Below, one piece after another: positions 1 through 54,259 of a DNA stretch of 64,000 bases. The notes below the pieces were generated by a model. That model had not been told where the DNA came from. It ran no database searches and saw only the letters and a list, made by a program, of their open reading frames with translations. This DNA is from Eledone cirrhosa. Taxonomy: Eukaryota. The stretch covers positions 306,776,001 through 306,840,000 of the forward strand of contig OZ024742.1 in the NCBI GenBank assembly GCA_964016885.1. The letters are read 5' to 3'. Position 1 is the stretch's first letter. Each line of letters begins with the position of its first letter. A program made the translations under genes and the position numbers.

Positions 1-2150
1 AGCTAACATTGCTAGTAACTACAGACTGTCCTACTTCCTCTCCCTGATCATACGCCCCATCATTGAAATGTCCCCAGATGTATGTGACAGCACGGAGGAC
101 TTCCTCAGCAGAATCGGCGTGTGTAACCGATCTAGGGACCTAACAAACTGCATAATAGGTAGTATGGATGTTGTGTCCCTGTATCCATCTATTGACGTGG
201 ATTTTGCCGTGGATTTTAATGTTGAGTTCCGTGGGATTGATACCTGTGAGCTGGGACTCCTACTTAAACTTACCTATAGTAATAATTATCTAGACACATA
301 TGACCTTAGCAACCTGTGCCCTACAAGACCAGCAAGAGGCAGACCACCTACCATTACCTCAATGGCCAAGAAAACCCACACAGATAGATAGAACGGGTGG
401 ACCAGAGCCATACGGACACCCGAAAACCACGATGAACTGAAGAAAATGACTGCACAAGCGGTAGGGGCCAGCATAAAACTAACCCTTAAGGAACATATGT
501 TCAAATTTAATGGAAAAACATATGCCCAAGAGGAAGGAGCAGCCATTGGTGTTAGCATTGCAGGCGACATAGCTAACTTATTCATGGTATGGTGGGATAG
601 TAGACTTAAACTTAAACTTAAAGAACAATTAGAAGACCCCTTAACCCTGATAATGTACTCCCGCTACGTTGATGATATAAACATCGTGTTAAGACACCCC
701 CACTACAGAACAGTCAGGAACTAGAGAAAAACACAATGGAAAGCATCCAGCAAATAGCTAACTCCATCCACCAGAGCATTAGAGTTACTATAGACTACCT
801 AAGTAAACACCCCAACCATCGATTACCTGTACTAGACACAGAGCTCTGGTTAGATACCATTAATAACAAAAAACAAATCCTCCATTCCCATTATGCCAAA
901 CCCATGACTTCCAAACATCTGATCCACCGAAACTCGGCCGTTTCGGACCATACCAAAATCAACATACTGATTGCGGATTTGGTAAGGGTGATGAGAAACG
1001 TGTCCCGCATGTGCAACCCCGAAGAACTAGTGAGACACATACAACACTTCATCCACCGTATGCAGTTCTCTGGCTACAATCAGAGAGATAGGATCAGAGT
1101 GTATAGAGGAGCCAGAACTAAATGGGAAAAAATCGTAAATAATGACATAAATGGGACCTGCACCTTGTATAGGAGACAATTTTTTGGAATAGAATAGAAA
1201 GAAATAGGAACAAGGCTAATAGAATAAACTCATGGTATGATAGCAATAAATACCAGAGTGTAATGTTCATCGATACAACCCCTAGAGGTGAATTAGCTTA
1301 CAAATTTAGAAGGGCCCTAAATAAACATAAACTCAATATTAAGATAGTAGAAAGACCAGGTACCTCCGTAAAAACACTTATTAGCAAGACATACCCTTTC
1401 CATAGACCCTCATGTATAGATAAGAAATGTATAACCTGTAAAATAAGCCCCCATATTAACTGTAAAACTAGAAATGTAGTGTATAGCATAAGATGTACTG
1501 AAGGACAATGTAGAGACAAAAATATAGTGTACATAGGTCAGACAGCTCGTATTGTAGGGGTACGGATAAATGAACACTGGCGAGACCTTCAAGATAGTAA
1601 AGAATCATCTGTACTCTACCAACATGCTAAAATAGAACACAAGGGTAAATTAGAGAAGATAGAAATAAAAATAGAATCTACACACAGAAAAGACGCAATG
1701 TTTAGACAAATTACAGAGGCAATAAACATAAAAGAATTACAACCAAAATTAAATAGAAAATATGAGTGGAACAGCAACATCACAACTTACAATTAAGGAC
1801 AAAATGAAAACACACACACACACATAGAACAAACAACCAACCAGTAACATGTAAATAAACAAATAAATAAATGAACATAAACACACACAGACACCCGGAT
1901 GTGGCGCATGCGCAGACTGAGCACACAACACACACACAGAAACAAAATGGCGTAGGACAGAACAAAGGAGAGGCACAGAAACAAAGAAAGGAATCCCCAG
2001 TCACTGAAGAGGTCACAGAGTGTGTGACGAAAGAACTATGACTATATATAAACAACTATCTGGTTGTGGAACCAACCAACCAACCAGAAATTTATAAATT
2101 TATAAATTTATTATAAATTTATTATAATAAATTGAAGTGAAAGCAACAGG
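1..2150 (+). mobile_element. Penelope-like retroelement (RT + C-terminal GIY-YIG endonuclease), degraded, 5' end outside the window
   Basis: Broken ORFs 68-391, 446-724, 736-1197 and 1263-1796 carry RT motifs GSMDVVSLYPSI, QEEGAAIG, YSRYVDD, LPVLD and GIY-YIG motifs NVVYSIRC..YIGQT..RINEH..EAINIK..PKLN. The 3' UTR contains an HHR. Confidence 0.93.
1999..2043 (+). ncRNA. Minimal type I hammerhead ribozyme in the PLE 3' terminus
   Basis: AGTCA-CTGAAGA-G-GTCAC(agagtgt)GTGAC-GAAA-GAACTA-TGACT. Stem I AGTCA/TGACT, stem II GTCAC/GTGAC, very short stem III, CUA triplet. Confidence 0.7.
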
Positions 2151-2261
2151 TGCGTGTGTTTGTGTGTTTCTTATTGGCAACATGACCCTCCCAAAGTATA
2201 ACAATATCGGTTTCAACACACGATTTCAGATAAAGAATCTTGCTAAACAAATTCAGAAACG

Positions 2262-2292
<31 letters not shown>

Positions 2293-2295
<3 letters not shown>

Positions 2296-3088
2296 GATAT
2301 TAATAAATGGAAACTATATTTATAAAACCACATTTATTTCATTATACATATTTCAGGCATACCAAATTAAATTATGGTATGCCTTCATCAGACAAAATAC
2401 AATATATAACAGTTTTACAAATAAGCTTTGACGTACCCTATTAAAATGCAACCATTATTTTTGGAAGCCATCCGGATAGTGATTTGTTTATATTATTTTA
2501 ATAAGTCATAGTGTTAAGGACAATTAGAAAAAGACGGAGAGAAAGAAAAAGACGGAGAGAGAGAAAGAAAAAAACGTGGAGAAGTATCTGAGAGAGAGAG
2601 ATGCATGGAGAAAAAAGAAAGAGATAAATAAAGACAGGAGGAAAGAAAGAAAAAAAGAAAAAAAGAAAAAAAGAAAGAAATAAGAAATAAGAAAAACAGA
2701 GGAAAGCAACAGAGAGATATTAAGTTATCAGACAGATAGGAAAACTCAAGAGAGAGAAATATTATATAGAGAGAGGGGGAAATAATGAAAATTTTACGTC
2801 ATGTCATATTAAGTTGAGTTAACAATTTATATGAAATCAATAATAAAAATATAAATATTAATATTCATGAATGGGACATAAATATATAATATGAGAAATT
2901 AAACATTGTTCAATAATGACTACATGTTTAGTTTAAGAACTTGAGATCAATATACCAAAATTTGGGTTTAATCAACCAAAATGCTAGAGAAATCAGTATA
3001 TCTACTCCAAATACTTGTCGAGTGCTTTATATCAGTTATAAAAATATTTACTTGTTGTATCCCAACAATTTTAAATAGAACTTTTGCA
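2293..3088 (-). mobile_element. Non-coding HHR-bearing repeat (PLE-terminus-like), family A copy 1, inside a (TA)n tract
   Basis: Highly similar to 38939-39550. Both copies are flanked by (TA)n and carry a minus-strand HHR. Confidence 0.75.
2335..2399 (-). ncRNA. Type I hammerhead ribozyme
   Basis: Minus strand reads tattttgt-CTGATGA-AGGCATACCA..TGGTATGCCT-GAAA-TATGTA-TA-atgaaata, with a perfect 10-bp stem II. Confidence 0.8.
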
Positions 3089-3672: not shown

Positions 3673-4198
3673 GAGTTTATGTTGGTTGTATACCAACACC
3701 TCAGTATACAGGCTGGAGCACTCGACGAAGTGCGCAGGTTGGTTTGGTTACTCCGGAGTAGTGTAAAATAAAGTTAAATAAAAGTCAAATGATTAAAATT
3801 TAGCTTCGTTTATTACTGCTATATATATTTTAGTGACATCCATCTTTGGCTGTGACCTCTTCAGGCAGTTTGAATTAGTATGGTATAGACAAGTACATAT
3901 GTTGTTTAGGTGTATAATATTGTCAATACTCTGATATGCCCAGTTCCTTGTTGGGTTGTTAATTCACTGAGGAACATATGACTCCAGTTCCTGAGTGAAT
4001 TAACAACCCAACAAGGAACTGGGCATATCAGAGTATTGACAATATTATACACCTAAACAACATATGTACTTGTCTATACCATACTAATTCAAACTGCCTG
4101 AAGAGGTCACAGCCAAAGATGGCTGTCACTGAAATATATATAGCAGTAATAAACGAAGCTAAATTTTAATCATTTGACTTTTATTTAACTTTATTTTA
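3670..4198 (-). mobile_element. HHR-bearing PLE-terminus element (family B) with a ~435-bp fold-back palindrome
   Basis: 3764-3975 is a near-perfect inverted copy of 3987-4198. 3670-3870 is homologous (reverse complement) to 42630-42834. Confidence 0.85.
4093..4147 (+). ncRNA. Type I hammerhead ribozyme (mirror copy at 3815-3869, minus strand, has GAAA>AAAA)
   Basis: ACTGC-CTGAAGA-GGTCACAGCC(aaagat)GGCTGTCACT-GAAA-TATATATA-GCAGT. Stem III is palindromic. Confidence 0.85.
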
Positions 4199-4322
4199 TA
4201 TATATATATATATGTATTTATTTATGTATACGTATGTGTGTATGTGTGTACGTATGTGTGTGTATATTTGTGTGTATGTGTATATATGTATGTGTATCTG
4301 TATGTATGTGTATGTATATTTT

Positions 4323-12372: not shown

Positions 12373-13270
12373 AGAAGGAGGCTAGAACGGGAAGAATAAC
12401 TACTGGATAGAGGGAGGCTAGAAAAGGAAGAATAACTGAAAATACAGGAAGGCTATAAATTGAAGAATACATACGGAAAGATGGAGTACAAAAAGGGAAC
12501 GGAAACTAGTAATACAGGGAGACTAGAAAGAGAAGAAAAACTACTGATAGAGGGAAGCTAGAAATGGAAGAATAACTAGGAATAGAGAGCGGCTAGAGAG
12601 GGAAGAATAACTAGGGATACGGGGAGGCTAGAAATGGAAGATTAATTATTGATAAGGGGAGGGTAGAAATGGAAGATTAACTATTGATAGGGGGAAGTTA
12701 GAAATGGAAGATTAACTATTGATAGGGGGAAGTTAGAAATGGAAGATTAACTATTGATAGGGGGAGGCTAGAGAGGGAAGAATAACTAGGCATACGGGGA
12801 GGCTAGAAATGGAAGATTAATTATTGATAAGGGGAGGGTAGAAATGGAAGATTAACTATTGATAGGGGGAAGTTAGAAATGGAAGATTAACTATTGATAG
12901 GGGGAGGCTAGAAATGGAAGATTAACTATTGATAGGGGGAAGCTAGAAATGGAAGATTAACTATTGATAGGGGGAGGCTAGAAATGGAAGATTAACTATT
13001 GATAGGGGGAGGCTAGAAATGGAAGATTAACTATTGATAGGGGGAGGCGAGAAATGGAATATTAACTATTGATAGGGGGAGGCTAGAAATGGAAGATTAA
13101 CTATTGATAGGGGGAGGCTAGAAATGGAAGATTAACTATTGATAGGGGGAGTGTAGAAATGGAAGATTACCTATTGATAGGGAGAGGCTAGAAATGGAAG
13201 ATTAACTATTGATATGGGGAGGGTAGAAATGGAAGATTAACTAGGGATAGGGGGACGCTAGAAACGGAAG
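12373..13270 (+). repeat. 35-bp purine-rich minisatellite (~25 units)
   Basis: Unit GAAATGGAAGATTAACTATTGATAGGGGGAGGCTA (e.g. 12911 and 12946). A 175-bp higher-order repeat occurs at 12596/12771. Confidence 0.95.
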
Positions 13271-16265: not shown

Positions 16266-19200
16266 CTACAGGCTGATATAGAGAGAAGGCCCATTCACTC
16301 GGGCCAATCTCGCCACTTTCACCCACCTTTCATAAAACTTGCTGGGGTACAGCACCTCTCTCTCCATCCTGATTCTTCTTCCAAAGTGGTATTTGAAAAA
16401 AATAATCAGTTGTTGGCCGGAGAGAAAGGTGTCTGACCTCAGCCCTTTCAACCTTGTCCACCATACAACCTCTTTCGCCATAGCTATCACACAAAGGAAA
16501 ACCGCCTCTCCTTCGTTTTTGAAAGAGGGTAGCGGAGTGATCATGACAATGGACTCGGTGGTCAACCGGATTGGTCCCACCCGCGACAATAGTCTTTCTA
16601 CATAGCCCCCAGGTCAGTGACACCCGGGCAGTGTATGAATGCGTGCGCGACGGTTTCTTCGTTACGCACGCATCTCGGACAGATCTTTTTTGCAGGGTCC
16701 CTGCTCGGGCGCCCATGTCTGTAGAGCTTGTCTCGAACTGGTAGAGCTCCTCGGTAGCACTGCCAGGCCAGGGACTTTTGGAAGTTGTCCATCGGTCCCG
16801 GGTGGAAGGTCCTACCGAACAGACTGGCCAGTTCATCTTCCTCTACGCCTAGAGTTTCACCGAGCGCGTCGTCGCACTTGCTGCGGATCAACTCTCTATA
16901 GAATGACGAAGTGGAGTCTCCACTGATCGCCGGGTCCGCCTGCCAGAGGGCTGTGAGCGCTTGAGCACATTCGATGTGCCAGTCGCCCATTTTCCTCGGT
17001 CTTTGCTTGACCCAGGACTGCAGCTCGGTCAGCGAGACGAGTCGTGGGAAGGCTCGCCTCACGAACGGGGCCCACACCGGTTGTCCGGTGAGGAATACGT
17101 AGAGATGCCGCAGCCTGAGTGCGTGTTTGCGCATCGTCAACCACGGCATCCCCAGCCCTACGTTAGAAGGGTGTTGGCAGCAGATGGATCTTCTCACCAA
17201 AGGAGCCCGCCTCTTCCAAAGGAATTGGAAGAGCGCGCGCTCCATTTTGGAGAGCGTTTTGGCTGGACAAGGCACGACGGTCAATCGGTAGTAGATGGCG
17301 GACGCTATAAAAGTTTTCGCCACCTCCGCTCGACCTTTCAAGAATAGTTTGCACTCGGCCCACTTCTGGGTGAGTGCAAACACCTTGGCCGTCACTGCGT
17401 TCCAGTTCTTCTCCACCTGGAGGTCCGGACCAAACCAGACCCCAAGCAGCTTTACCGGTCCTTCCGTCCAGCGTCCGACGACGCCATCGGAAGGCATCGG
17501 TTTGCCTCTCCACGATCCGAGTTGCAAACCGATGGAGTTGTCCCAGTTCAGCTTCGCTCCTGTAAAACTTTAGTATTCCTTCAGTAAGGTGCCGACTTCC
17601 TCGATTTGCGAGGCGCTCGAAACCATTACTGTGACGTCGTCGGCGTAGGCCGACGCCGCTTTCCGCAGTCCCGGTTCCAGAGGGATGCCCTGCAATAGCT
17701 CCAACTTCCGCAGTAGTGGCTCGAGAGTCAGTACGTACAGAAGGGAGGAGAGAGGGCATCCCTGTCGAATGGATCGCGTAATATGGAACGGCTCCGAGAG
17801 GTAGCCGTTCACCTTGACCCTTTAGCAGATATTGCTGTTGTGCATTGCAGCAATCCAGCCCCTGAACACGGGTCCGAAGCTTGTCGCCTCGAGCACCGCA
17901 TCCAGGTAACGATGGTCAACCCTATCGAAAGCCTTAGACTGATCCAAGTTGATCAGGGCCCCACCGAAGCCGGGTTTACACCCAACCCTCTCTATGATGT
18001 ATCGCATGAGGTGGAGGTTGTCGTGTATGGACCTTGTCGGGATTGCGCATGTCTGCGCTTCTCCCACCAGGTTCTCGACGACAAGCGCCAGCCTCTTTGC
18101 CAACACCTTGGCCAAAATCTGTAACTCTGTGTTTAGCAGAGTTATGGGCCGGAAGTTGCCTGTGTCATCCCCCTTATTCTCGTCCTTCCTGACTAGTGTG
18201 ACCACGCCCCCGGTTACAGAACTGGGAATTCTCCCGTTCTGTTGTCAGTTGCAGTAGACCGCTTCCAGGAGACCGGAGAATAAGTCCGGCATTGCTACGT
18301 AAAATTTGTAGGGTAGACCGTCGAGACCTGGAGATTTGCATTTGCCGCATTGGCTTAGCGCGACCACTATGTCAGCGGCTGAAATCAACTTTTCGCAGAA
18401 CTTTGACTCGCTGTCCGAGAGTCGTGGTAGGCCGTCGAGGTATGGACCGAAATCCATAGCCTCTCCCGGCGCGCGGCCCCGCCCGAACAGTTGAGCAAAG
18501 TGTCGCTCAATGGCCGCACACATCTGCTTCGGCTCACGTATCACGCGTCCGTTTTGGTCCTTCAAAGACCGAATCGTGGACTTGTTGCCACTTTTTGCCT
18601 CCGTCACTCGGGCCCAGCTAACAGCTTTGGCTCCCTCGTTTCCCAGAGCACGTATTTTGCTTCTGACAACGCAGCCCTCGTGCTTTGCGTCGAAGAACTG
18701 GTCCAAGGCCGTTCTCGTTGCTAGCACGCTGGCTACGTTGCCACTTCTAATTGCCTCTTCTACTTTATCTACCAGTTTCTTCTCGGTTCTATTTCTATCT
18801 AACGCTAATTCTTTACTAAAAACTAACGAGTCTAATCTAACTGCCTTCTTGAGAGAACCACCATCTGTTGTTGACAATGGCTCCTGTCAAGTGCTGTTTA
18901 ACTAAAGTGCTAATCCGTCTACTGGAGGCTTTGCTTGTCGGTAACGACAAGTTCAGCTTCCAGTAGCCGGGTCCTTGTCTATGGGTTCTATCAAGATTGG
19001 CCATGCAGGTCACTAGTTTGTGATCTGAATAGGCAACCATGAACATTTGTGGACAGCTTAACATGTCCCTATCCTTATTTCTAACTAGAACCCTATCTAG
19101 GTATGATCTAGATGTTCCGCTGCGATTAGTCCAGGTTCATAGTGGCACAGTCGGAAAATCTAGTCGATATCTATCGGCCAGGTCAAATCTGCCGTTAACT

Positions 19201-19706
19201 GTTTAAGGCTGTTACACGCCCCCTCCTCCTTTATCTGGACATGCTCCCACATAGTCCCAACGTGCATCTAGGATTCCATTCCAGTCCCCCACTAAAAGCA
19301 AGGAGCGGGACGTTCCCAGAAAAGTCTCTACATGTTTGAAGAAGTCTAGCTGTTGTGTCCCGGGTGGGGCATATGCAACCACCAGTCTGAAGGCTCCACC
19401 TTCACTACCGTCAACGTCTAGGACCACCAGTCGACCCTCCGAGTCCAGATGTACCGTCTGTGTTACGAGGCCCAGGTGTTTCCGCAGCAAAACGGCAACT
19501 CCGCCCCCACCCCCCGGTTGACAGAGAGATGCGTAGATCTCAAAGTCATCGAAGATGGGGGCCAGCTGTCGCTCGCTGTGAATCCTGTACTCGCAAATGG
19601 CTACCACATCCATACTGTGCGACCTGAAGTTGTTTAAGAGTTTGCCCTGTTTCCAGGGTATCGCCAGGCCGCGTACATTCACACATCCAACTCTTATATT
19701 GGCCAT
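16266..19706 (-). pseudogene. LINE ORF2 (AP endonuclease + reverse transcriptase + C-terminal Zn motif), disrupted
   Basis: VGCVNVRGL, LLVGDWN, YSDH, KSPGLDGLP, FRPITLLN, LDQSKAFDRVDH, IRQGCPLS, AYADDV, LLGVWF and CPRC..ETVAHAFIHC occur, with several stops and frameshifts. Confidence 0.92.
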
Positions 19707-21549
19707 GTTGGTGCTGGAAATTTAAAAGAAGGGGAAAAGAAATCACTTACCTCTTCGTCTTCTGGGAACCAGGCTGCACGATTTCCATGGGGGTGTTTGA
19801 GGGGTTGTTTGGTGGTGGTTTCTGGTGGGATGGGGACGGAGATTTTTGGTGGAGAGGGGGTGTATGGTGGGATGGAGTGTCTGGGGTGGGGGTATCTAGG
19901 GTGGGGGTGTGGAAACATTTTAACAGGACTCGATTGTATATTTGACGCAGGCGTTACCTACGTCGTTAGGAAATTTTCCTTTTAACTGTTTACGTGTGTC
20001 CATGGAGATCCTAATCATTTTAAGGTTAGGATTCTCCGAATACTGTGTAAAAGATTTCCCTTCGGTCTCGACCGAAGGTTTTTTATATATGGGGTCTGTT
20101 AAAGTGTTATTCTTAGTATTTATGTAGGTGTAACATTTTTGTTGCGTTGTGTTGCTTTTTGTCTGTGGTTCTTGTGTGTGTTTATGTTTTGTAGTAGGTG
20201 TTTTGTTTTCAGGAGGGGGTGTTTTTGTTTGTGCTGTTTGCGTTGCTTGTGTGTTTGTTGCATTTTTGTTTGTGTTATGTCTTTTCTTTTTTTCTTTTTA
20301 CTGGTCGGAAAAGCTCTCCCTCATCGTCACTGGGTGACGATGATGAGGCCTCATCCGTGTTGTTGGGGAGGGGTACATTTTGGGGAGTTGTTATGTGTGT
20401 GGGTGTTTCTGGAGTTGTTTTAGTTGGGGAGGGGTTGGGTGGGACTGTGTTTGTCGTTTGTTTTGTTGTCACTATTTTTTATGTTGTTGTTGTCGTTGTG
20501 GTGGTGATGGTTGTGCTGGTGTTGCAGGTGTTGGCAGTAGTGCCTTTTTGGGGCTAGTTAGCCGAGGACAGGAAGCTCTCAGGTTACCCCTGCTTAAGCA
20601 GTGGTAACATGAGGGCCGCCTACCCTCGACCGAAATGTTTATGTATATAAGCCCATCCAGCAGAACACGTTCCGGGATCCTAGCTAATCGTTCTGGCGTC
20701 ATTTGGACCAGAATTTCCAGGCTAGATCGGCTAAACAGGACTTACCTACCGATATTATTGAGTCTTTTTGGAGGTTTAAAATCCACATAGTACCCACCAA
20801 ATATCAATATTTGGTGTGATGCTTTCGATTTTTATTTTCTGTGTTCTTTTCCCCATGTAAGTGGGGGAAAATGTGAACAGCGGTAACACAATTGGCGACA
20901 CAGAATATCTCTGTGCCGTCAATTGGTTTTTCACCAGAATGGATAAACTCCCGTAGAGTCTACCCTTCTGAATGAAAGCAATGTCTTTTAAGGCATCTTT
21001 TAAAACCAACTCAATTTCACCTTGTGAAAGTTTAGTTGGTTTTCGGGTTTTGTTTGAGACTGTCCTGAAAACCAGTTTTCAAGGCAGTTTCTCTTCGCAA
21101 ATCTGGGGGAGAGTTTATGGAAAATGATCCGTTCTCCCCCAAAGTTACGTACTGTCTGGCGTTATTCAAAAGATCATTTGCATTTGAAATATCCACCGGA
21201 GTGTAGCTTACCGTTTTCTTTACGGTTTGCGCAAACGGTATTTTGTCGTTTACTTCCTTGTTGCAGTTATTGGTCTTGTTGTTGTTGTTGTTGTTCTTGT
21301 TGTTGGTGTTGTTTTAGTTCATAGTATTGTTGTTGTTGTTGTTGCTGGTGCCGCTGGTTGTGTTGTCTTTGTCCATTGTTTCACACTTTTGGCCATGGCA
21401 ACGTCAAGTTGTTAGTCAGCAGGTGAACAAAATCCTTCCTCTGGCTGAACTTTGTCTGAGACATCTGCTATTATGACAGTGGGATGGGGAAGCTGTAAGC
21501 ATATCTTCCCCGTTCCTCCTGTTGGTGAAGAAGCTGTTGCCTCAGCCAT
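19694..21549 (-). pseudogene. LINE ORF1 (gag-like), disrupted
   Basis: Candidate start MAEATASS at 21549. VEGRRPSCYHCLSRGNLRASCP is a CCHC-like knuckle (H>N), flanked by low-complexity Q/T/P/K regions. Confidence 0.7.
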
Positions 21550-27385: not shown

Positions 27386-28292
27386 CCTGAATGAGTATGC
27401 ATGTTTATGTGTGAGTGTATGTGTGTTTGTGTGTGAGTGTGTATATGTGTTTGTGTGTTTGTGTGTGAGTATGTGTATGTGTTTGTGTGGGAGTGTGTGT
27501 AACCAAACAAGCAAAACTAAAGAAACGATAAGTGATGTGGTTAGGTTCATTAGGTTACGAAAGATTTTAAATAACCAAATATAAAAACATGTATATAACT
27601 ATATGTAAAGAGGTACATGTATATAATTATATGAAACTAGCTGCATGTAAATAGCTACAGCTAAACCACATGTATGTAGCTACATGTATATAACTGCCTA
27701 TAAATATGTGGATGTAAATAATTATATGCACATAGCTAAGTGTAAATAACTACATACTGCAATTTAAAAAAGTTACACGTATATTTCACTAATGTATATA
27801 AATTATGTGCTACTTAAATAACTACATATATTTTTGTGTCTGTATTATTATTGCTATGGCACAAAAAATAATATAGAAAAGGCGAATTAGTGTAGATTTT
27901 TTAATACATCTCTTAAATGTCCGAAGATTGGAAGCGTGGAAATCGAACCAATGGCTAGATAAGTCAGCTTATATATATATATAAAAAAATTAAAGTATAG
28001 AAATTGTTGTGAGCGTGAAGCCAACAGTATTTCTTAATATATAAGTGACCATAACGTCAAAATGGAAAAATAGTTAACGTAAGATGTGGGAAAATAATTC
28101 AAACTCAATTTTAAAAAAATCAAGACATAGATTAATCCATAGAATTTTGTGAAATCCAGGGAAAAATCAATAGAGCCTTCGAAGCAATGGCTAGCTAAGT
28201 CAGCTTATATATATATATAAATTAAACGGAAAAAATGAAACGAAATTTCATTTCTCACTCTTAGTACGGCTGTTAGTACAGCAGGAAGGTAT

Positions 28293-28335
28293 ACGTTGCT
28301 GACGATAGCTAATAAGCTTGAAACTAGTACAACGT
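28293..28335 (+). ncRNA. Minimal type I hammerhead ribozyme
   Basis: ACGTTG-CTGACGA-T-AGCT(aata)AGCT-T-GAAAC-TA-GTA-CAACGT, with the ACTAGT palindrome. Confidence 0.9.
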
Positions 28336-28721
28336 TCCTTTGTCAGTGTTGAACAAACGAGCAACGATGGTTGCTAGACACTACGGCTTAACACGGGATG
28401 CTTGTTTACAAACACACCGAGCATTATAATAAATGTTCGGTGAATCCATACGTACATATATATATGTGTGCATGTATGTATATATATATATACATACTAC
28501 TGTACGTCTGTATACATATATGTATGTACGTATACATACTTATATTTAAGTATCAGCCGTACTAACAGTGAGAAATGAAATTTCGTTTCATTTTTTCCGT
28601 TTATCGTTTTCGGTACCCCGGCCGATTAACTCACTCGATATGCAAATTAGGCTGCTCAGCCGTTAATATGCATAAGGAAAGTATATACTTTCAGACGTTC
28701 AACCATCTGGCAGGAAGGTAT

Positions 28722-28764
28722 ACGTTGCTGACGATAGCTAATAAGCTTGAAACTAGTACAGCGT
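28722..28764 (+). ncRNA. Minimal type I hammerhead ribozyme (second copy)
   Basis: Identical core. Stem I is ACGTTG/CAGCGT, where the A>G change gives a U-G wobble. Confidence 0.9.
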
Positions 28765-30620
28765 TCCTTTGTCAGAGTTGAACAAACGAGCAACGATGGT
28801 TGCTAGACACTACGGCTTAATACGGGATGTTTGTTTACAAACACACCGAGCATTATAATAAATGTTCGGGGAATCCATACGTACATTTATATATGTGTGC
28901 ATGTATGTATATATATATACATACTACTGTACGTCTGTATACATATATGTATGTACGTATACATACTTATATATATAAATTAGTAAAGTAGTAGGCGCGT
29001 GTACATTTGTTGTTAGGGAGATCGTCTCACGATTGTAAGGTTATGAGCACGATTCCCGACGGTAAGTTGGGTCCTTGAGCAAGGCACACTATTTTGTATT
29101 GTTCAAGTCCTCTCAGCAGGAACAAAAGCTAGTTACACACGATTAAAAGATCCAAACTTATGACACGCTGTATCACGTAGAATCTTCGTGAGAATTACGT
29201 TAAGAACCCTCGTGTCTGTGGAATGTTCAACAAATTAAACGGTATTTCATGAGAAGTCTCTTCTGTTGAACAAGCAAGTGAAGAAACGTCGTCGGAACTG
29301 ATAGATGTCCAAGACACACCCATATACACAATTTGTATAACTGCAAGTATACAGACATGTATTCTATATAAACCGCAAGTAATGCCAATAATCCAATAAA
29401 ACAAATAATTCATGCAAAAGCCAATGTCAATTTCTTACGTCTTTAGAGTGTTGGACAAAGTACTTTGAAATGTTCCCTTATTTGGCGGTCTGATTTCAAT
29501 TTCCACAAAGTTTTCTATAAACAAAAAATAAAAACATGGGTTTATTGAGGGAGCTAACAACCACTTCTTATCTAACATCCAAGATTTAGCATCAAACCCT
29601 ACGTAACAAGATAAGAGTTTAAATAAAGAAATATTCCATGTATTTACACGGTAATCATGTATTGTTACAATTTCCTCATATTTCGATCTATATTTACGAA
29701 TGTCAACCGGATAAGAATAGCAGCAATATTTTGAAATTACATAGTAATGTCTTACACAATGAACGGCTTATTGAATAATTTAAAAGAATATCAATAGATA
29801 ATAATTTAAAGATCCGAAGCCCTTCTTATAATGCGACAGTTCGATCTGGAATGACATATGATTAAACAAAAACACAAACACACTCCAAATTTACAAATCA
29901 ACGACAAAGCCTCTATTCTGTAGCTTGACTTGCTAGAAATAGTCGCCAAGTATAATTTAAATAAATGGCTACTCTATTAATATGATATAATGTATTCCTA
30001 AATTTAAAAAAATCCTAGAAAAATGAGGGTTTGCACCCGTCTAGATGACATTTTTATTTAGGTTTAATCGTCATCAACAATATCAACAACAACGTGACGT
30101 ACGCATATGCATTTTGTTGTTGCTATTGGTACAGGTGATGATGATGCTATAGGTGATGACTACAAACATAAGTGGTAGTAATAGAGTTAGAGAAAATAGA
30201 GAGATTGAGCACGTTTGTTGCTTGGTAACAGAGTATTTCGCTGTTGTAAATTTACCGTTCGTGTTCTAAGGATTGTGAGAGACAAACAGATGTGATGAAT
30301 ATTAAAAAAGAAAACAAACAGTCACCAGAGTACGACATTGGCACACAACATTCTGGATGCCCCCTTTAAATAGAATCATTCACATCAACTTTATTAGCAG
30401 TCGACTGAGGATAGCAACCAGTACTTTACTGGGAGTCGAATTTACAGCAGTTTTAATATATACATACATAATATATAGGTTCATACATGCACACATGCAT
30501 ACATACATACATACATACATACATACATACATACATACATACATACATAATACATACATACATACATACATACATACATACATACATACATACATACATA
30601 CATACATACATACATACACG

Positions 30621-47778: not shown

Positions 47779-49657
47779 TTAAGTGTTCGATTTGTAGTGC
47801 GAAAATTTCTCTTTGAGTCTATGGTTACAGTAAATTGATCTCTCAATTTTATTGTTGAGTAACCTATTCTTCGAACTTAAGATGTGGAACAGCTCAAGGT
47901 CGCATAATCGACAGCTTCTCATACCACTCCGATATGGAGGCGCGTTTGATAATTTTTTCCACTTCAGGGTGTATTGATGGTTACTTTCCCTCAGTTGCCA
48001 CGTCTTGTTTGCAAGGGTAGTTGCATAACGGTGCTGGGAATGTTTCATTGCGTAACGGTGTGTATACCAACGAGCTTTAAAAGTATTCCCAGTCGCTCCG
48101 ATGTAATACCATTTCTGGTTGTCTGATTCCACTGTGCATTGGTAAACCAGGTTAGACTGCATACATTCATTTTGTAATGGACAGGTTTCAGGTAGGTGGC
48201 AGTTGCATTTCTTGTTATGGGCAACTTTGGCATTATTTGTGGGCTGCGATGCCTGAACAAGTGTGTTACGTTTTGTTTGCCTATTAGCGGGTGGTTGTGT
48301 ATTAGATATTCTTTTGTGTTCGGTGGTAATTGTATTGTTATTGTCGTAAATTTGTGTTTTGGTGTTGTTATGTATCTTTTTAGCGTTAAGCATCTTAATG
48401 TGTGCTTCTATATTTGGTGCCGTGGAGTAAGATAGTCTAATAGATTTAGTGTTAAGGATTTTGCTGTATCTATGTGAATCTGGAAAGTGCCTATTTATTA
48501 TTCTAAAGAAAGTAGAGGGTAGGTTAGTACTAATAGAGGTGTTAAATATGGGGTTATACCAAATATATTTTCTACTGCGTGACTTGTTTGATTTCGATGT
48601 TGTACTTCTATTTGCCGTATACTTTGCAGTTCTATGCGTAAATGTGTGTATGCGTGTGTTTCTGGAGTTTGTGTTATGCGTGTTCGTGTGTGCTTCACAG
48701 AGGCTTTCATCTATATATTCTACTCTATCTAAGTGGCCTGCCTTGTCTAATGCGGTATTGTAGTATTCTGCATGTTCTTCGAAGATTTGCCGGTTAGATG
48801 AGAGGCGGGAGATCCTAAGGGATATGCTGCGTGGAATGGATTTAATTATTGATAGTGGGTGGTTTGAGTTACAGTTGATGTATGCTAAGTTTTCATTTAT
48901 CTTGTGAAAAGGTCTTATAAGTCCCGTATTTAGGTTAAGCGTCACATTTAGAAAGTTAACTGTTTTAGTGCTATACTCGTACGTTATGCTTAGGTCTAGT
49001 TTTCCGAGAGTCTTTCTAATATTCTTACGGAGTCTTTCTATGCTCTAGTTATTTAGGTTCTTAACTAGGAGAAGGGCGTCGTCTCTGTAGATTCCACCGT
49101 GAAGGTCGCTAAACTCGCTTTGTAAACTATGGGCTATGTAAATACCTACTAAGTCTGTGACTTGAGCCGAGTCGTTAGCCCTCATCGTGATGTCAAAGTT
49201 ATTTAATCTATCCTTACGTTCCCAATAGGCGTTTTCAAATTTAATTATTGTTTTCCTAGCAGCTAATATGATTTTTATCTCGTCGTCTGTTATGTCAGAA
49301 TTGGCTTTGGCGAATGCTAAGGCTTTATCCAAGGTGTTGGGGGATATAGATGAGTAATAATCGTTAATGTCAAATTGTATAAATTTAGATACTTCTTTGT
49401 TAGCTATATTGTTAAACCATTTAATTGTTTCCGTAGCGTTACCCCATAGTTTAATCACTAGTTTATTCTTCATTTGTGCTATCACTCTGTCTAATATATG
49501 TTTACTAATTTTCCCGATGTCCGATTCGGATGGGCATATAAGTCTAATAGTGGGGTTATAATCAAAATTTACCTTGTGGTCTTTGAGGGTAAATGTGGGG
49601 GTACATGGCTTAAGTGGCTCCGTTCCGTCGTCTATTCCTAGGTGTTTGACTATATTG
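47779..49657 (-). pseudogene. PLE RT + GIY-YIG endonuclease ORF with a single in-frame TAG at 49045
   Basis: TLKDHK..RLICP, QFDINDYYSSI, FDITM, GIYRDD, SNHP, the CxCx5Cx5C linker (CNCHLPETCPLQNEC), LVY..YIGATG..FKARW and CRLCDLE are present. The two ORF-track pieces are in the same frame. Confidence 0.92.
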
Positions 49658-49969
49658 GACAAAACATCAAATGTGTATACGATGGATGTTAATACATACA
49701 ATAGCTTCATACGGAAAGAATTACATAGGAAATACAAAAAAAACAAATGGGGCGGCACTGATAAACATCAACAACGAGGCACACAATATAGTCAATATAT
49801 CCCCCCCTCCCCCTTCTCCCTCATTCCTCTTCTATTTCTTCGTTTTCTTCCTTCCTTCCCCCTTCTTGGCTATCTTTTCTTTTCTTCCTCCTCACCCCCT
49901 TCTTTGCTTTTATTTTTGTCATTATTATCTTTATTTTTATTTTTTTATATATATATATATATGTGTATA

Positions 49970-51242: not shown

Positions 51243-52058
51243 TTTCTTTATTAGCCACAAGGGCACAAAAGGGGACAAATACAAACGGGGAGTTTACATA
51301 GAGGTATATGAAAATAAAACTATTAATAAAATAATAAATAACAATTAAAATCGCCAAAAGGGGGGAGGTGTTACACAGGGGTTGTACACACCCTGTAAAA
51401 AAAATGTACAACCCTCACCTCCAGGGGCAACAAGAGTGAGTACTCCCTTCCTCTCTAACTCTTTTTCTTCAACCTACAGGCTTATATAGAGAGCCCAAAC
51501 ACTCGGGCCATCTTTGCCACATTCACCCACCTTTTATAAAATTTGCTGGGGTACAGCACCTCTCTCTCCATCCTGATTCTTCTTCCAAAATGATATTTCA
51601 AAAAACGAATCAGTTTCTCGCCGGAGAGAAAGGTGTCTGACCTCTGCCCTTTTAACCTCGTCCACCAGATAACCTCTATCACCATAGCCAAAACACATAG
51701 GAAAACCGCCTCTCCCTCGTTTTTGAAGGAGGGTGGCGGTTTGATCATGACAATGGACTCGGTGCTCAACTGGATTGGTCCCACCCGCGACAATAGTCGT
51801 TCTACATAGCACCACAGGTTGATAACGCCAGGGCAGTGTACAAATGCGTGCGCGACGGTTTCCTCGTCGCGCACGCATCTCGGACAGATCTTTTTCGAAG
51901 AGTCCCTGCCCGGGCGCCCGTGTCTGTAGAGCTTGTCTCGAACTGGTAGAGCTCCTCGGTAGCACTGCCAGGCCAGGGACTTTTGGAAGTTGTCCATTGG
52001 TCCCGGGCGGAAGGTCCTACCGAACAGACTGGCCAGTTCGCCCTCCTCTACGCCTAGA
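51243..52058 (-). mobile_element. 5'-truncated copy of the Tx1/L1 LINE in (GATA)n
   Basis: Collinear with 16030-16855 (MDNFQKSLAWQCYRGALPVRDKL..CPRC..HC). GATA repeats flank both sides. Confidence 0.93.
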
Positions 52059-52077
52059 GAGATAGATAGATAGATAA

Positions 52078-52147
<70 letters not shown>

Positions 52148-54259
52148 AGTAGATAGATAGATAATAATTAGATAGATAGATCGATAGATAGATTGATAGA
52201 TAGATATACATCCATACGTATTTCACACACAGAGGTACGTGCATATTTCTCTACATATAAATGTATACATATGTGGACATATAGATACACGTATTTACTT
52301 ACATCCCTACGTACTTATGTGTACTTGTGTCCTTTGTGCTTGTGTGTGGGTGTGAGAGCGCATATACATTTATTCATATATATGTGTTTCACATTTATGT
52401 ATGTATTTCAATATGTGAAAACGTGTTATCGCAATTTGAATACAATTTGTGCGAAAATGTGTATATTATAATTGAACACTCTTTGTGATGGTACGTGGTT
52501 CAATGGTTAGGGTGTTCGAATCAGGACCATAATTAATTGGTTTGATTCGCGGTGGCGAGTTTTGTCTTTGTGCATGACAATTTATTTCAAGATTTATCAA
52601 TACACTCAGCATGCAAAAGCGAATTTTACCTGTAATGCAATGGCTTTGTCTTTTTACACAATATGTCACGGGGAATATCTCAGAAGCGAAATAAATTAAA
52701 AAGTTTGTGGAATGCTCAGGTTTTCACCTTGTAATATCAAGAGTAGGCTCTTCCGTTTCTCAAATAACTGAAGAACGCATCATCGCACCGACGGAGGTCT
52801 AACACACACACTACCCCCTCTATTTCGTTCCACCGTCTAGATGCTCTAAATTATGAATTAAATATGAGATCTTGAAACTATCTTACAGACACTTAAACTG
52901 ATGTAAATTTGTCTGATATTTTTGTTGTCTTATTAACATTTATGTTTGTGTTTATATCTGTTGTTGTTTCCCAACTTTGCTATTTGCCTGCAAGCTAATA
53001 TGTGAGTTAGAAAATTAATTTAATGAAATCATTAAGGCATTCAATTAAATCAAATATTAAGAACTAATAAATAAAAATAACATCAATAAGTGAATAAGTA
53101 AAGAAAATAACTCATGTTTTCGCCTTATAATATTTTGTTATGGTACTATAAATATTAAATTTGTATTCATTTTATTATTATTATTTTTGTTGTTGCTGTT
53201 ATTATTATAATTATTTCCACCATCATCCTCAATACCGCCAACATTATAAGCAGCAATAGTGGTGATGATATTGATGGCCGTGTTGGTGACTTTGTTGGTG
53301 ATGATGGTGTAGGTGGTAGTATCGTGGTGGTAATGGTAATATTGAGATTGGTAGTGGTAGAAGTAGACATGGCAAGAGCCCAGGCAGAAAGACAAGATAG
53401 AATCTTGCATTATAGTTGAACCTCAGTTTTAATACCAAAACGAACAAAACGCAACTCAGAAAAATAGAAAAAAAAACAACTAATAGCCTTCAATATAGTG
53501 TCTCTCCTTGAATTGATGTGATTACTTCACATATTTACATTATCTCTGTATCATCATCATCCTTATCATCATCATCATCATCATATTATTATTATTATCG
53601 CCTAATATAGTTGGCACTTAGCCATGCACCCATATATATATATATATACATACAAAAACATATATATATGTGTGTGTGTGTGTATCCAAGTGATGTTGAC
53701 GGACGCAGAAATAAGTACTCAATACCGAAATAGAGTTTAATAAGATTATATATTCTGAAGGAGAATAGCTTCAAAGCCCGATGACTCAGCACCTGATTGC
53801 GTTTAAGAATATGATATTCCAAAACTCAACATTATCATCGAAATACGTCTGTAAATTGTCATATATCGGCATTATAAAACCCACCATCAAATGGAGTATT
53901 TGTACCGAGAGAAAAGCTTATAAAGTACGTGGTACTATATCCAATTGATGCACCACAGAAAACCTGTATATCATCGATTGATGAACGAGTAATCTGAGTT
54001 GCCTACATATAGCCTGAGTCTATTGCAATACATCCGTCTTAAAGTAATCCCACTAATATACTAGATAATTACTGCCTTATACATAAAATCCAAGAATACT
54101 GGATAATAATATATATGAGATCGTCCAAATAGTGGATGACATATTCATTTATCTACCAAATTCATGTCTACCCATGCTTGGCTTCGTTTTATTCCTCGTG
54201 TTACTAGTGGCATCCCTCATCATCCCTAATGTTACGTATAAGAATGGCAGAATATGGTA

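Follow-up and report, generated by a model that had tools for sequence, protein, structure and literature searches.

We analyzed a window of 64,000 nucleotides of Eledone cirrhosa DNA (assembly GCA_964016885.1, contig OZ024742.1, positions 306,776,001 to 306,840,000 of the forward strand), in which positions 28210–28982 carry two hammerhead ribozyme motifs in tandem. This locus is probably an aged insertion of a non-coding hammerhead repeat of 421 or 429 bp, a likely non-autonomous passenger of a Neptune-type Penelope-like element (PLE), and its RNA is predicted to self-cleave as a dimer, to circularize and to be reverse-transcribed at nicked (TA)n sites. It belongs to a large family, dispersed in about ten thousand copies, and taken singly it is an ordinary middle-aged member.

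Two CTGACGA cores lie on the forward strand at 28299 and 28728, exactly 429 nt apart, and each motif contains an ACTAGT palindrome (28323–28328 and 28752–28757), as the first-pass annotation had reported. Numbering the unit u1–u429 by its first copy (Table 1), the first 268 positions of copy 1 (28281–28548) and the second copy (28710–28975) were 96.6% identical over 268 columns, and the repeat amounts to 1.6 units. The predicted cuts, 28329|28330 and 28758|28759, bound the 429-nt interval that had been proposed as the excised RNA, and its coordinates were confirmed. No convincing open reading frame was found in it, in agreement with the earlier statement; with the monomer taken as circular, its longest frames with an ATG start were 68 amino acids (+) and 37 amino acids (-), and no reverse transcriptase (RT) or GIY-YIG frame lay between the repeats. 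A 50-bp 5' inversion with a TTAGTAC duplication had also been described. The inverted arm and the duplication (28261–28267 and again 28273–28279) are there, but the arm is 53 bp long, pairs with 28551–28603 at 96%, and is the terminal tail arm of the family. The five filler nucleotides at the junction may have come from backward slippage inside the tail or from a jump via the TAGTACA stretch of the ribozyme itself. A 15-nt target duplication (28210–28224 and 28968–28982), missed by the earlier annotation, stands at both element ends and encloses the whole 753-bp structure; this 15-mer occurs only twice in the window, and its automated measure was 13 nt. Tandem Repeats Finder run on the window did not list a period of 429.

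Each motif consists of a 6-bp stem I, a 4-bp stem II (AGCT/AGCT, closed by an AATA loop and bordered by a T.T mismatch), GAAA and a GTA cleavage triplet. The sole difference between the two motifs is an A/G change on the 3' strand of stem I (U-A versus U.G), which keeps the pairing in both, as had been noted. It does not speak for selection at this locus, because the TA variant of motif 1 is a private mutation: it occurred in 0 of 38 motifs of a position-ordered sample and was enriched only where the window copy had served as query. The term "minimal" that had been applied to the motifs was also not upheld. By the definitions in PMC4209133, a helix I of 6 bp, a helix II of 4 bp and a short palindromic helix III make up the canonical metazoan type I layout, not the PLE-minimal one. 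A search of Rfam returned zero hammerhead matches at the gathering score in the window, nor was there one among the 73 matches with E ≤ 10 around the locus; the microRNA matches were rejected since they corresponded to the TA hairpin and fell below the gathering score.

Constraint on the ribozyme was examined in family copies from loci picked by a pattern outside it. Among 103 such segments, common variants were confined to N7 (C/T), H17 (A/T, so that the triplet reads GUA or GUU), loop 2, the mismatch beneath stem II and a single pair of stem I, and the fixed letters of the core had scattered changes only. Changes between subfamilies thus lie where a hammerhead tolerates them, with covariation in stem I. 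Over 320 segments, the variable stem I pair was TG in 101, AT in 28, TA in 16, GT in 14 and unpaired in 7, and the stem II base mismatch was TT in 164 and CA in 9. In a 24-row alignment with rows hand-chosen across subfamilies, 98.1% of the cells were paired in 18 distinct motifs, compared with 19–38% in slid controls. The catalytic positions were thus retained across subfamilies that are 10–15% divergent elsewhere, and the ribozyme looks, from these sequences, to have been under constraint in the source lineage.

Self-cleavage is predicted to depend on two motifs. In the folding model the core of a single motif mispaired with stem III, and the palindrome-palindrome duplex was calculated at -6.8 kcal/mol; an unconstrained co-fold of two motifs did not yield the double hammerhead. 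Dimer cleavage had been taken as given in the first-pass annotation, and the available literature is less favorable, with weak cleavage of PLE-type hammerhead dimers (PMC4209133) and cleavage of 1 of 9 Xenopus retrozyme dimers (Li, Clavereau & Pollet 2026 preprint, 10.64898/2026.07.22.740005); for the axolotl HHR_Amex2, 22% of the monomer was cleaved in one hour, and the dimer cleaved better (PMC7229834). Measurable cleavage of the window dimer in vitro is a prospect that we put somewhat below even.

The genome examined comprised 3.0 Gb in 1,796 contigs. The 26-nt ribozyme core had 11,409 exact matches and its reversed control none, so the motif pair in the window is not due to chance; an older core variant gave a further 979 exact matches. 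The first 100 of the 11,409 matches fell into 78 loci, 10 of which had same-strand cores 420–453 bp apart (five cores in one of them), and by extrapolation about a thousand tandem loci with exact cores are expected genome-wide. Copies are dispersed over many chromosomes and have fixed ends. Their unit length is either 421 or 429 bp, the two classes being set apart by an 8-bp indel, and the subfamilies showed 84–97% identity to the window copy. The count of copies and longer arrays that the first-pass annotation had called for thus revealed an abundant family with arrays of up to five same-strand ribozymes. In 153 mapped insertions, the largest same-strand ribozyme count was 1 in 120, 2 in 26, 3 in 5, and 4 and 5 in one each; 33 of the 153 had at least two, and array length followed a roughly geometric distribution with an approximately fivefold drop per added unit. 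Pieces of the family were also present in two other organisms, and contigs of three of four sequencing runs contained it. A description of the family was not found in the literature searched, from which Repbase/Dfam, subscription papers and supplements were outside the scope, so that a library entry is possible; the available text of PMC13282606, PMC6962438 and PMC6765202 covers PLE activity and hammerhead counts, not this unit family.

Evidence on the mobilizing machinery came from the ends of these 153 insertions, which occupied 151 non-overlapping loci. A tail of approximately 55 nt was confined to one insertion end, on the u324 side. Two-arm inverted insertions with fixed-site ends had one u324 and one u268 end in 53 of 55 cases (p = 4e-14 against 50:50), and each kind of like-ended insertion was seen only once. 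The remainder included 40 single-arm insertions with a standard end, 7 with another end, and 21 complex or tail-to-tail structures. A (TA)3 sequence was present within 16 nt at 171 of 210 standard ends, compared with 13% in the control, a figure to which the TA-like end of the element itself may contribute. Target duplications of at least 8 nt other than TA were found in 8 of 53 insertions (control, 2.2%), and 40 of the 53 had pure TA at this position and were hence unreadable. Tail arms stopped near u268 in 8 of 53 insertions, including the window locus, and the other arm in 3 of 53; this mild excess suggests, without establishing it, that both strands were primed on a single RNA (twin priming).

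Such a layout, with partial tandems, one inverted truncated arm and a one-sided tail, has been described for PLEs, together with a (TA)n bias that goes with the cysteine linker of the Neptune type (PMC8557442). The genome contained 10,596 GIY-YIG candidates, among them unbroken frames of 1096 and 938 amino acids, and the 1096-amino-acid RT/GIY-YIG frame (L091/L141) was apparently intact and had a Neptune/Nematis-type cysteine linker. The coding PLE at L141 (3351–8675; G000:C1, ~83.81 Mb) has an inverted arm, a one-sided tail of approximately 42 nt and a TA target, a two-ended layout like that of the unit. Its 3' region is very long and TA-rich, and it bears a ribozyme-like motif with TTGACGA in place of CTGANGA. 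The suggestion that PLE machinery was the mobilizer, made before from a single inversion, is therefore far better backed by the 53 of 55 end rule and the TA targets, and we consider it very probable that this is a PLE-mobilized retrozyme family.

A mechanism that would produce these structures can be outlined. A multi-unit transcript would fold two ribozymes together through the ACUAGU palindrome and be cut after GUA, and a host ligase would close the released monomer into a circle. The PLE endonuclease would then nick both strands of a TA tract, allowing one strand to prime at u324 and the other at u268, each via TA-like microhomology. Both cDNAs would run around the circular template until a random stop and then be joined head to head. 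At the window locus, the tail primer would have yielded 53 nt and the other primer approximately 695 nt. The monomer is predicted to be highly self-paired as a circle, with 69% of its bases paired in the model (-138 kcal/mol).

Several observations weigh against this reading. At the level of the ribozyme, a two-sided change occurred at one pair only, in stem I, the relatedness of the sequences inflates the pairing test, and the G10.1-C11.1 pair that is usual elsewhere is absent from the motif. The end rule has exceptions: 30 two-arm insertions had at least one non-standard end, 43 insertions were single-arm or complex ones in which ends or order deviated, and 58 of the 153 insertions departed from it in all (7+20+16+9+5+1). 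Strict twin priming would favor stops near u268, where only 8 of 53 tail arms stopped. An autonomous PLE sharing the sequence of the unit was not found among the 55 PLE loci examined out of the 10,596 GIY-YIG candidates. The likeness of the tail to that of the L141 family was not significant in 18 comparisons (15 of 500 shuffles with one copy and 296 of 500 with the copy in the window) and is a lead only. The two units of the window locus shared zero rare alleles in 164 columns, some arrays (L021, L147, L151 and part of L121) mixed subfamilies, and an uncleaved multimer accounts for the missing pile-up of 5' ends, described below, as well as a circle does.

The last of these points bear on the alternative that survives best, in which the family and its PLE mobilizer are the same but what is copied is a linear multi-unit transcript that was never cleaved, with a slow or idle ribozyme and no circle. 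If a cut linear RNA had been the template, 5' ends would be expected to pile up at u50. Of the 142 copies beginning at u44–u58, the first 100 were tallied by eye and 8 internal deletions removed; 18 of the remaining 92 began at u49–51, which equals the uniform expectation of 18, and 4 at u50. The 5' ends upstream of the ribozyme were likewise spread over 116 copies without a pile-up, and an apparent pile-up at u1 was dropped as a mapping artefact of the unit boundary, since the direct count was spread. These counts speak against a cut linear template, which we exclude; the absence of a stop at the cleavage site is equally expected if nothing is cut. Median divergence within an insertion was 3.3% for tandem and 3.1% for inverted units, compared with 7.3% between loci. 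Units of the same insertion had rare alleles in common at 12 of 37 loci with tandem units and 8 of 36 with inverted ones. The corresponding figure for 2,455 pairs taken from different loci was 0.5%, a control that is depressed by the definition of rarity and to which L121 contributes many pairs. Together, the absent cleavage-site stop and the shared rare alleles fit the reverse transcription of either one ligated circle or an uncleaved multimer. The mixed arrays favor the latter, because one circle cannot yield them without a template switch or later recombination, and so does the weak dimer cleavage in the published record. Against an uncleaved template stand the catalytic positions held across divergent subfamilies, the compensated stem I pair, the lack of a fixed 5' end at the two places tested, and the arrays of four to five near-identical units which, with the rare alleles that inverted arms have in common, are as expected if one monomer was copied repeatedly. 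On balance, a circular template is moderately favored over an uncleaved linear one, and the alternative as a whole, with a slow or idle ribozyme, is rather unlikely.

The first-pass annotation had named the window locus the best candidate for an active retrozyme. This was not borne out. Both motifs are intact and in tandem, and the monomer is predicted to fold stably (z -8.3 for the linear fold; the parts beyond the TA hairpin scored -3.9 and -2.3). The two units differ, however, at 5 of 164 columns outside the TA hairpin (3.0%), which ranks the locus 20th of 40 tandem pairs by divergence; it carries 8 private changes, and none of its alleles marks a daughter subfamily in the sample. Younger arrays are many, with pairs only 0–0.7% apart at L121, L078 and L017, and about a thousand tandem loci with exact cores are expected. 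Unit 1 begins just 18 nt upstream of its core and is without its own upstream sequence, so that release of a monomer would need read-through from outside unless a promoter is internal; were there one within u325–u429, the second ribozyme alone would be transcribed from inside. It is improbable that the window locus is at present a source of 429-nt circles. L121 (G000:C2, ~231.49 Mb), a young insertion with no fewer than four ribozymes in one orientation and three in the opposite one that runs past both ends of its 3-kb locus, would be a far better test substrate.

A still less probable alternative takes the copies for the terminal repeats (pLTRs) of a coding PLE in truncated form, and the locus for a PLE insertion that lacks its 5' part. 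The insertions follow PLE grammar, 120 of 153 insertions have a single ribozyme, and at L220 a young unit lies approximately 110 nt downstream of a decayed PLE frame in the same direction, the geometry of a reading frame followed by a ribozyme. The L220 arrangement was not seen again in 23 relatives of that fossil PLE, however, and unit copies that reach upstream of the ribozyme enter another unit or stop, without meeting a reading frame. By pattern, 38 copies leave the unit after u400, and the 30 inspected were deletions, rearrangements and unrelated flanks with no common coding continuation. The sampled coding PLEs bear different ribozymes, and a search with the unit profile across the 55 PLE loci and the window recovered inserted copies and TA-repeat noise only. 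A PLE protein match was present within the fetched DNA at 20 of 165 unit-bearing loci (some of them overlapping), at mixed distances and orientations, consistent with the earlier description of a non-coding retrozyme-type repeat not bound to a coding PLE. Least probable of all is a local tandem or satellite-like duplication of one inserted monomer with relic ribozymes, for which the similarity of the tandem units and the slippage-prone TA-rich hairpin could be cited, because the whole structure lies inside one target duplication, the inverted arms share subfamily and rare alleles with the direct arms, and copies with fixed ends are found on many chromosomes.

Compared with known systems, the repeat described here is an animal non-LTR (long terminal repeat) retrozyme on every feature tested, with cleavage and circles as predictions. 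Like the elements of coral, mussel and axolotl (PMC7229834) and those of the 2026 preprint, it has a non-coding unit within the 150–450 bp range with a GC content below 50% and a single type I hammerhead, is present in thousands of copies that range from monomers to multimers, has target duplications of more than 4 bp and a self-paired predicted circle, and coexists with PLEs. The U.U mismatch at the base of helix II is found also in HHR_Amex2 (PMC7229834). It differs from animal non-LTR retrozymes in that most of its copies are scattered as insertions with one ribozyme or as short inverted ones, not as long arrays, and in its helix III loop of 2 nt. Unlike in Xenopus, for which the 2026 preprint gives PLE homology for 21 matched elements among 24 of 57 families, no parent pLTR was found for the unit in the sampled PLE loci. 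With EN+ PLEs of the Neptune type (PMC8557442) the unit has in common the partial tandems, the inverted 5'-truncated arm, the one-end tail, the (TA)n bias and a type I hammerhead with a palindromic helix III, whereas it has no RT or GIY-YIG frame and its tail is approximately 55 nt long instead of 30–40. PLE minimal hammerheads (PMC4209133) have the same palindromic positions 15.2–16.2 and loop 3, an extra base after A9 and a predicted need for a dimer; the unit departs from them in its helix I of 6 bp rather than 4–5, the absence of G10.1-C11.1 and a low within-family sequence variability, and from the schistosome ones in its helix II of 4 bp rather than 7–8. The T.T mismatch below stem II, along with a 6-nt palindrome, recurs in the ribozyme of L094, a coding PLE family of this genome, and the unit has no sequence homology to the sampled coding PLEs. 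Plant LTR retrozymes are also non-coding, with two hammerheads bracketing a monomer; they have type III ribozymes, LTRs, a primer-binding site and polypurine tract, and 4-bp duplications, unlike the type I hammerhead and 12–15-bp duplications of the unit.

Table 1. Features of the hammerhead repeat insertion in the window
Feature	Positions	Strand	Remarks
Left target-site duplication	28210–28224	+	In (TA)n tract; final 2 nt overlap the element end
Inverted arm, u323 to u271; ~55-nt terminal tail of the family	28223–28275	-	Matches the family's commonest letters; zero private differences
Junction filler, 5 nt	28276–28280	+	Gives rise to the second TTAGTAC
Unit copy 1 (u1–u429)	28281–28709	+	429-bp length class; 5 private changes
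Hammerhead motif 1, type I	28293–28335	+	Core 28299–28305; GAAA 28320–28323; palindrome 28323–28328; predicted cut after 28329
Predicted 429-nt monomer between both predicted cuts	28330–28758	+	37% GC
TA-rich long hairpin	28445–28550	+	Terminates at the tail-less end site u268
Internal tail copy (u269–u324)	28549–28604	+
Unit copy 2 (u1–u268)	28710–28975	+	Stops at the tail-less site; 3 private changes
Hammerhead motif 2	28722–28764	+	Core 28728–28734; predicted cut after 28758; the family's commonest sequence
Right target-site duplication	28968–28982	+	Initial ~5 nt overlap the TA-like end of the element

Two short words were noted in the unit. The word ATGCAAAT in 28636–28680 (u356–u400), kept in most unit copies, resembles what we take to be an octamer, and AGGTAAGT, directly before the 8-bp deletion of the 421-bp class, is presumably splice-donor-like. 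The left flank of the locus (27943–28221) is another high-copy repeat, the 43-bp end of which is duplicated 236 bp apart; the 43-bp repeat at 27943 was considered as a paralogous empty site and dropped, the flank itself being a high-copy repeat. Elsewhere in the window, 1–2270 (+) contains a broken PLE of a family distinct from the 429-bp unit, with fragments of RT and GIY-YIG and a hammerhead of its own at 2004, and 47782–49767 (-) holds two long frames with RT-like (YRDD) and GIY-YIG-like motifs by eye and no Pfam match, probably another PLE family. Further hammerhead-like motifs of other repeat families lie at 2295–2420 (-), 39038 (-), 4098 (+) and 6978 (+). The element at 2295 terminates in a T-run/CCATTTAT word resembling the older subfamily of the unit, and 3822–3973 and 3986–4200 form an inverted pair. 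Decayed long interspersed element (LINE) pieces (endonuclease, zf-RVT) and a 35-bp minisatellite were seen at 16330–19721 (-), 51485–52222 (-) and 12377–13270.

Mobilization of animal retrozymes by PLEs and an origin of PLE tandems from circular RNA have been proposed (PMC7229834, PMC4209133), and the 2026 preprint added co-occurrence and pLTR homology in vertebrates while calling the mechanism unresolved. The ends of insertions are not analyzed in the available text of PMC7229834 or of the preprint; they were analyzed here, and to the question of who mobilizes animal retrozymes the unit family brings insertion-level evidence for the PLE enzyme, in the form of the one-tail rule and the TA targets. 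The family is also a small and abundant test substrate. We tentatively raise, as a possibility somewhat short of likely, that it represents a free-standing lineage of ribozyme circles without a surviving coding parent, copied through several subfamilies by a borrowed PLE enzyme, in which case its approximately 10,000 insertions would be a record of two-ended rolling-circle reverse transcription. If true, this would directly support the route through a circle that has been proposed for the transposition of PLEs and retrozymes, and would offer two defined sites of priming.

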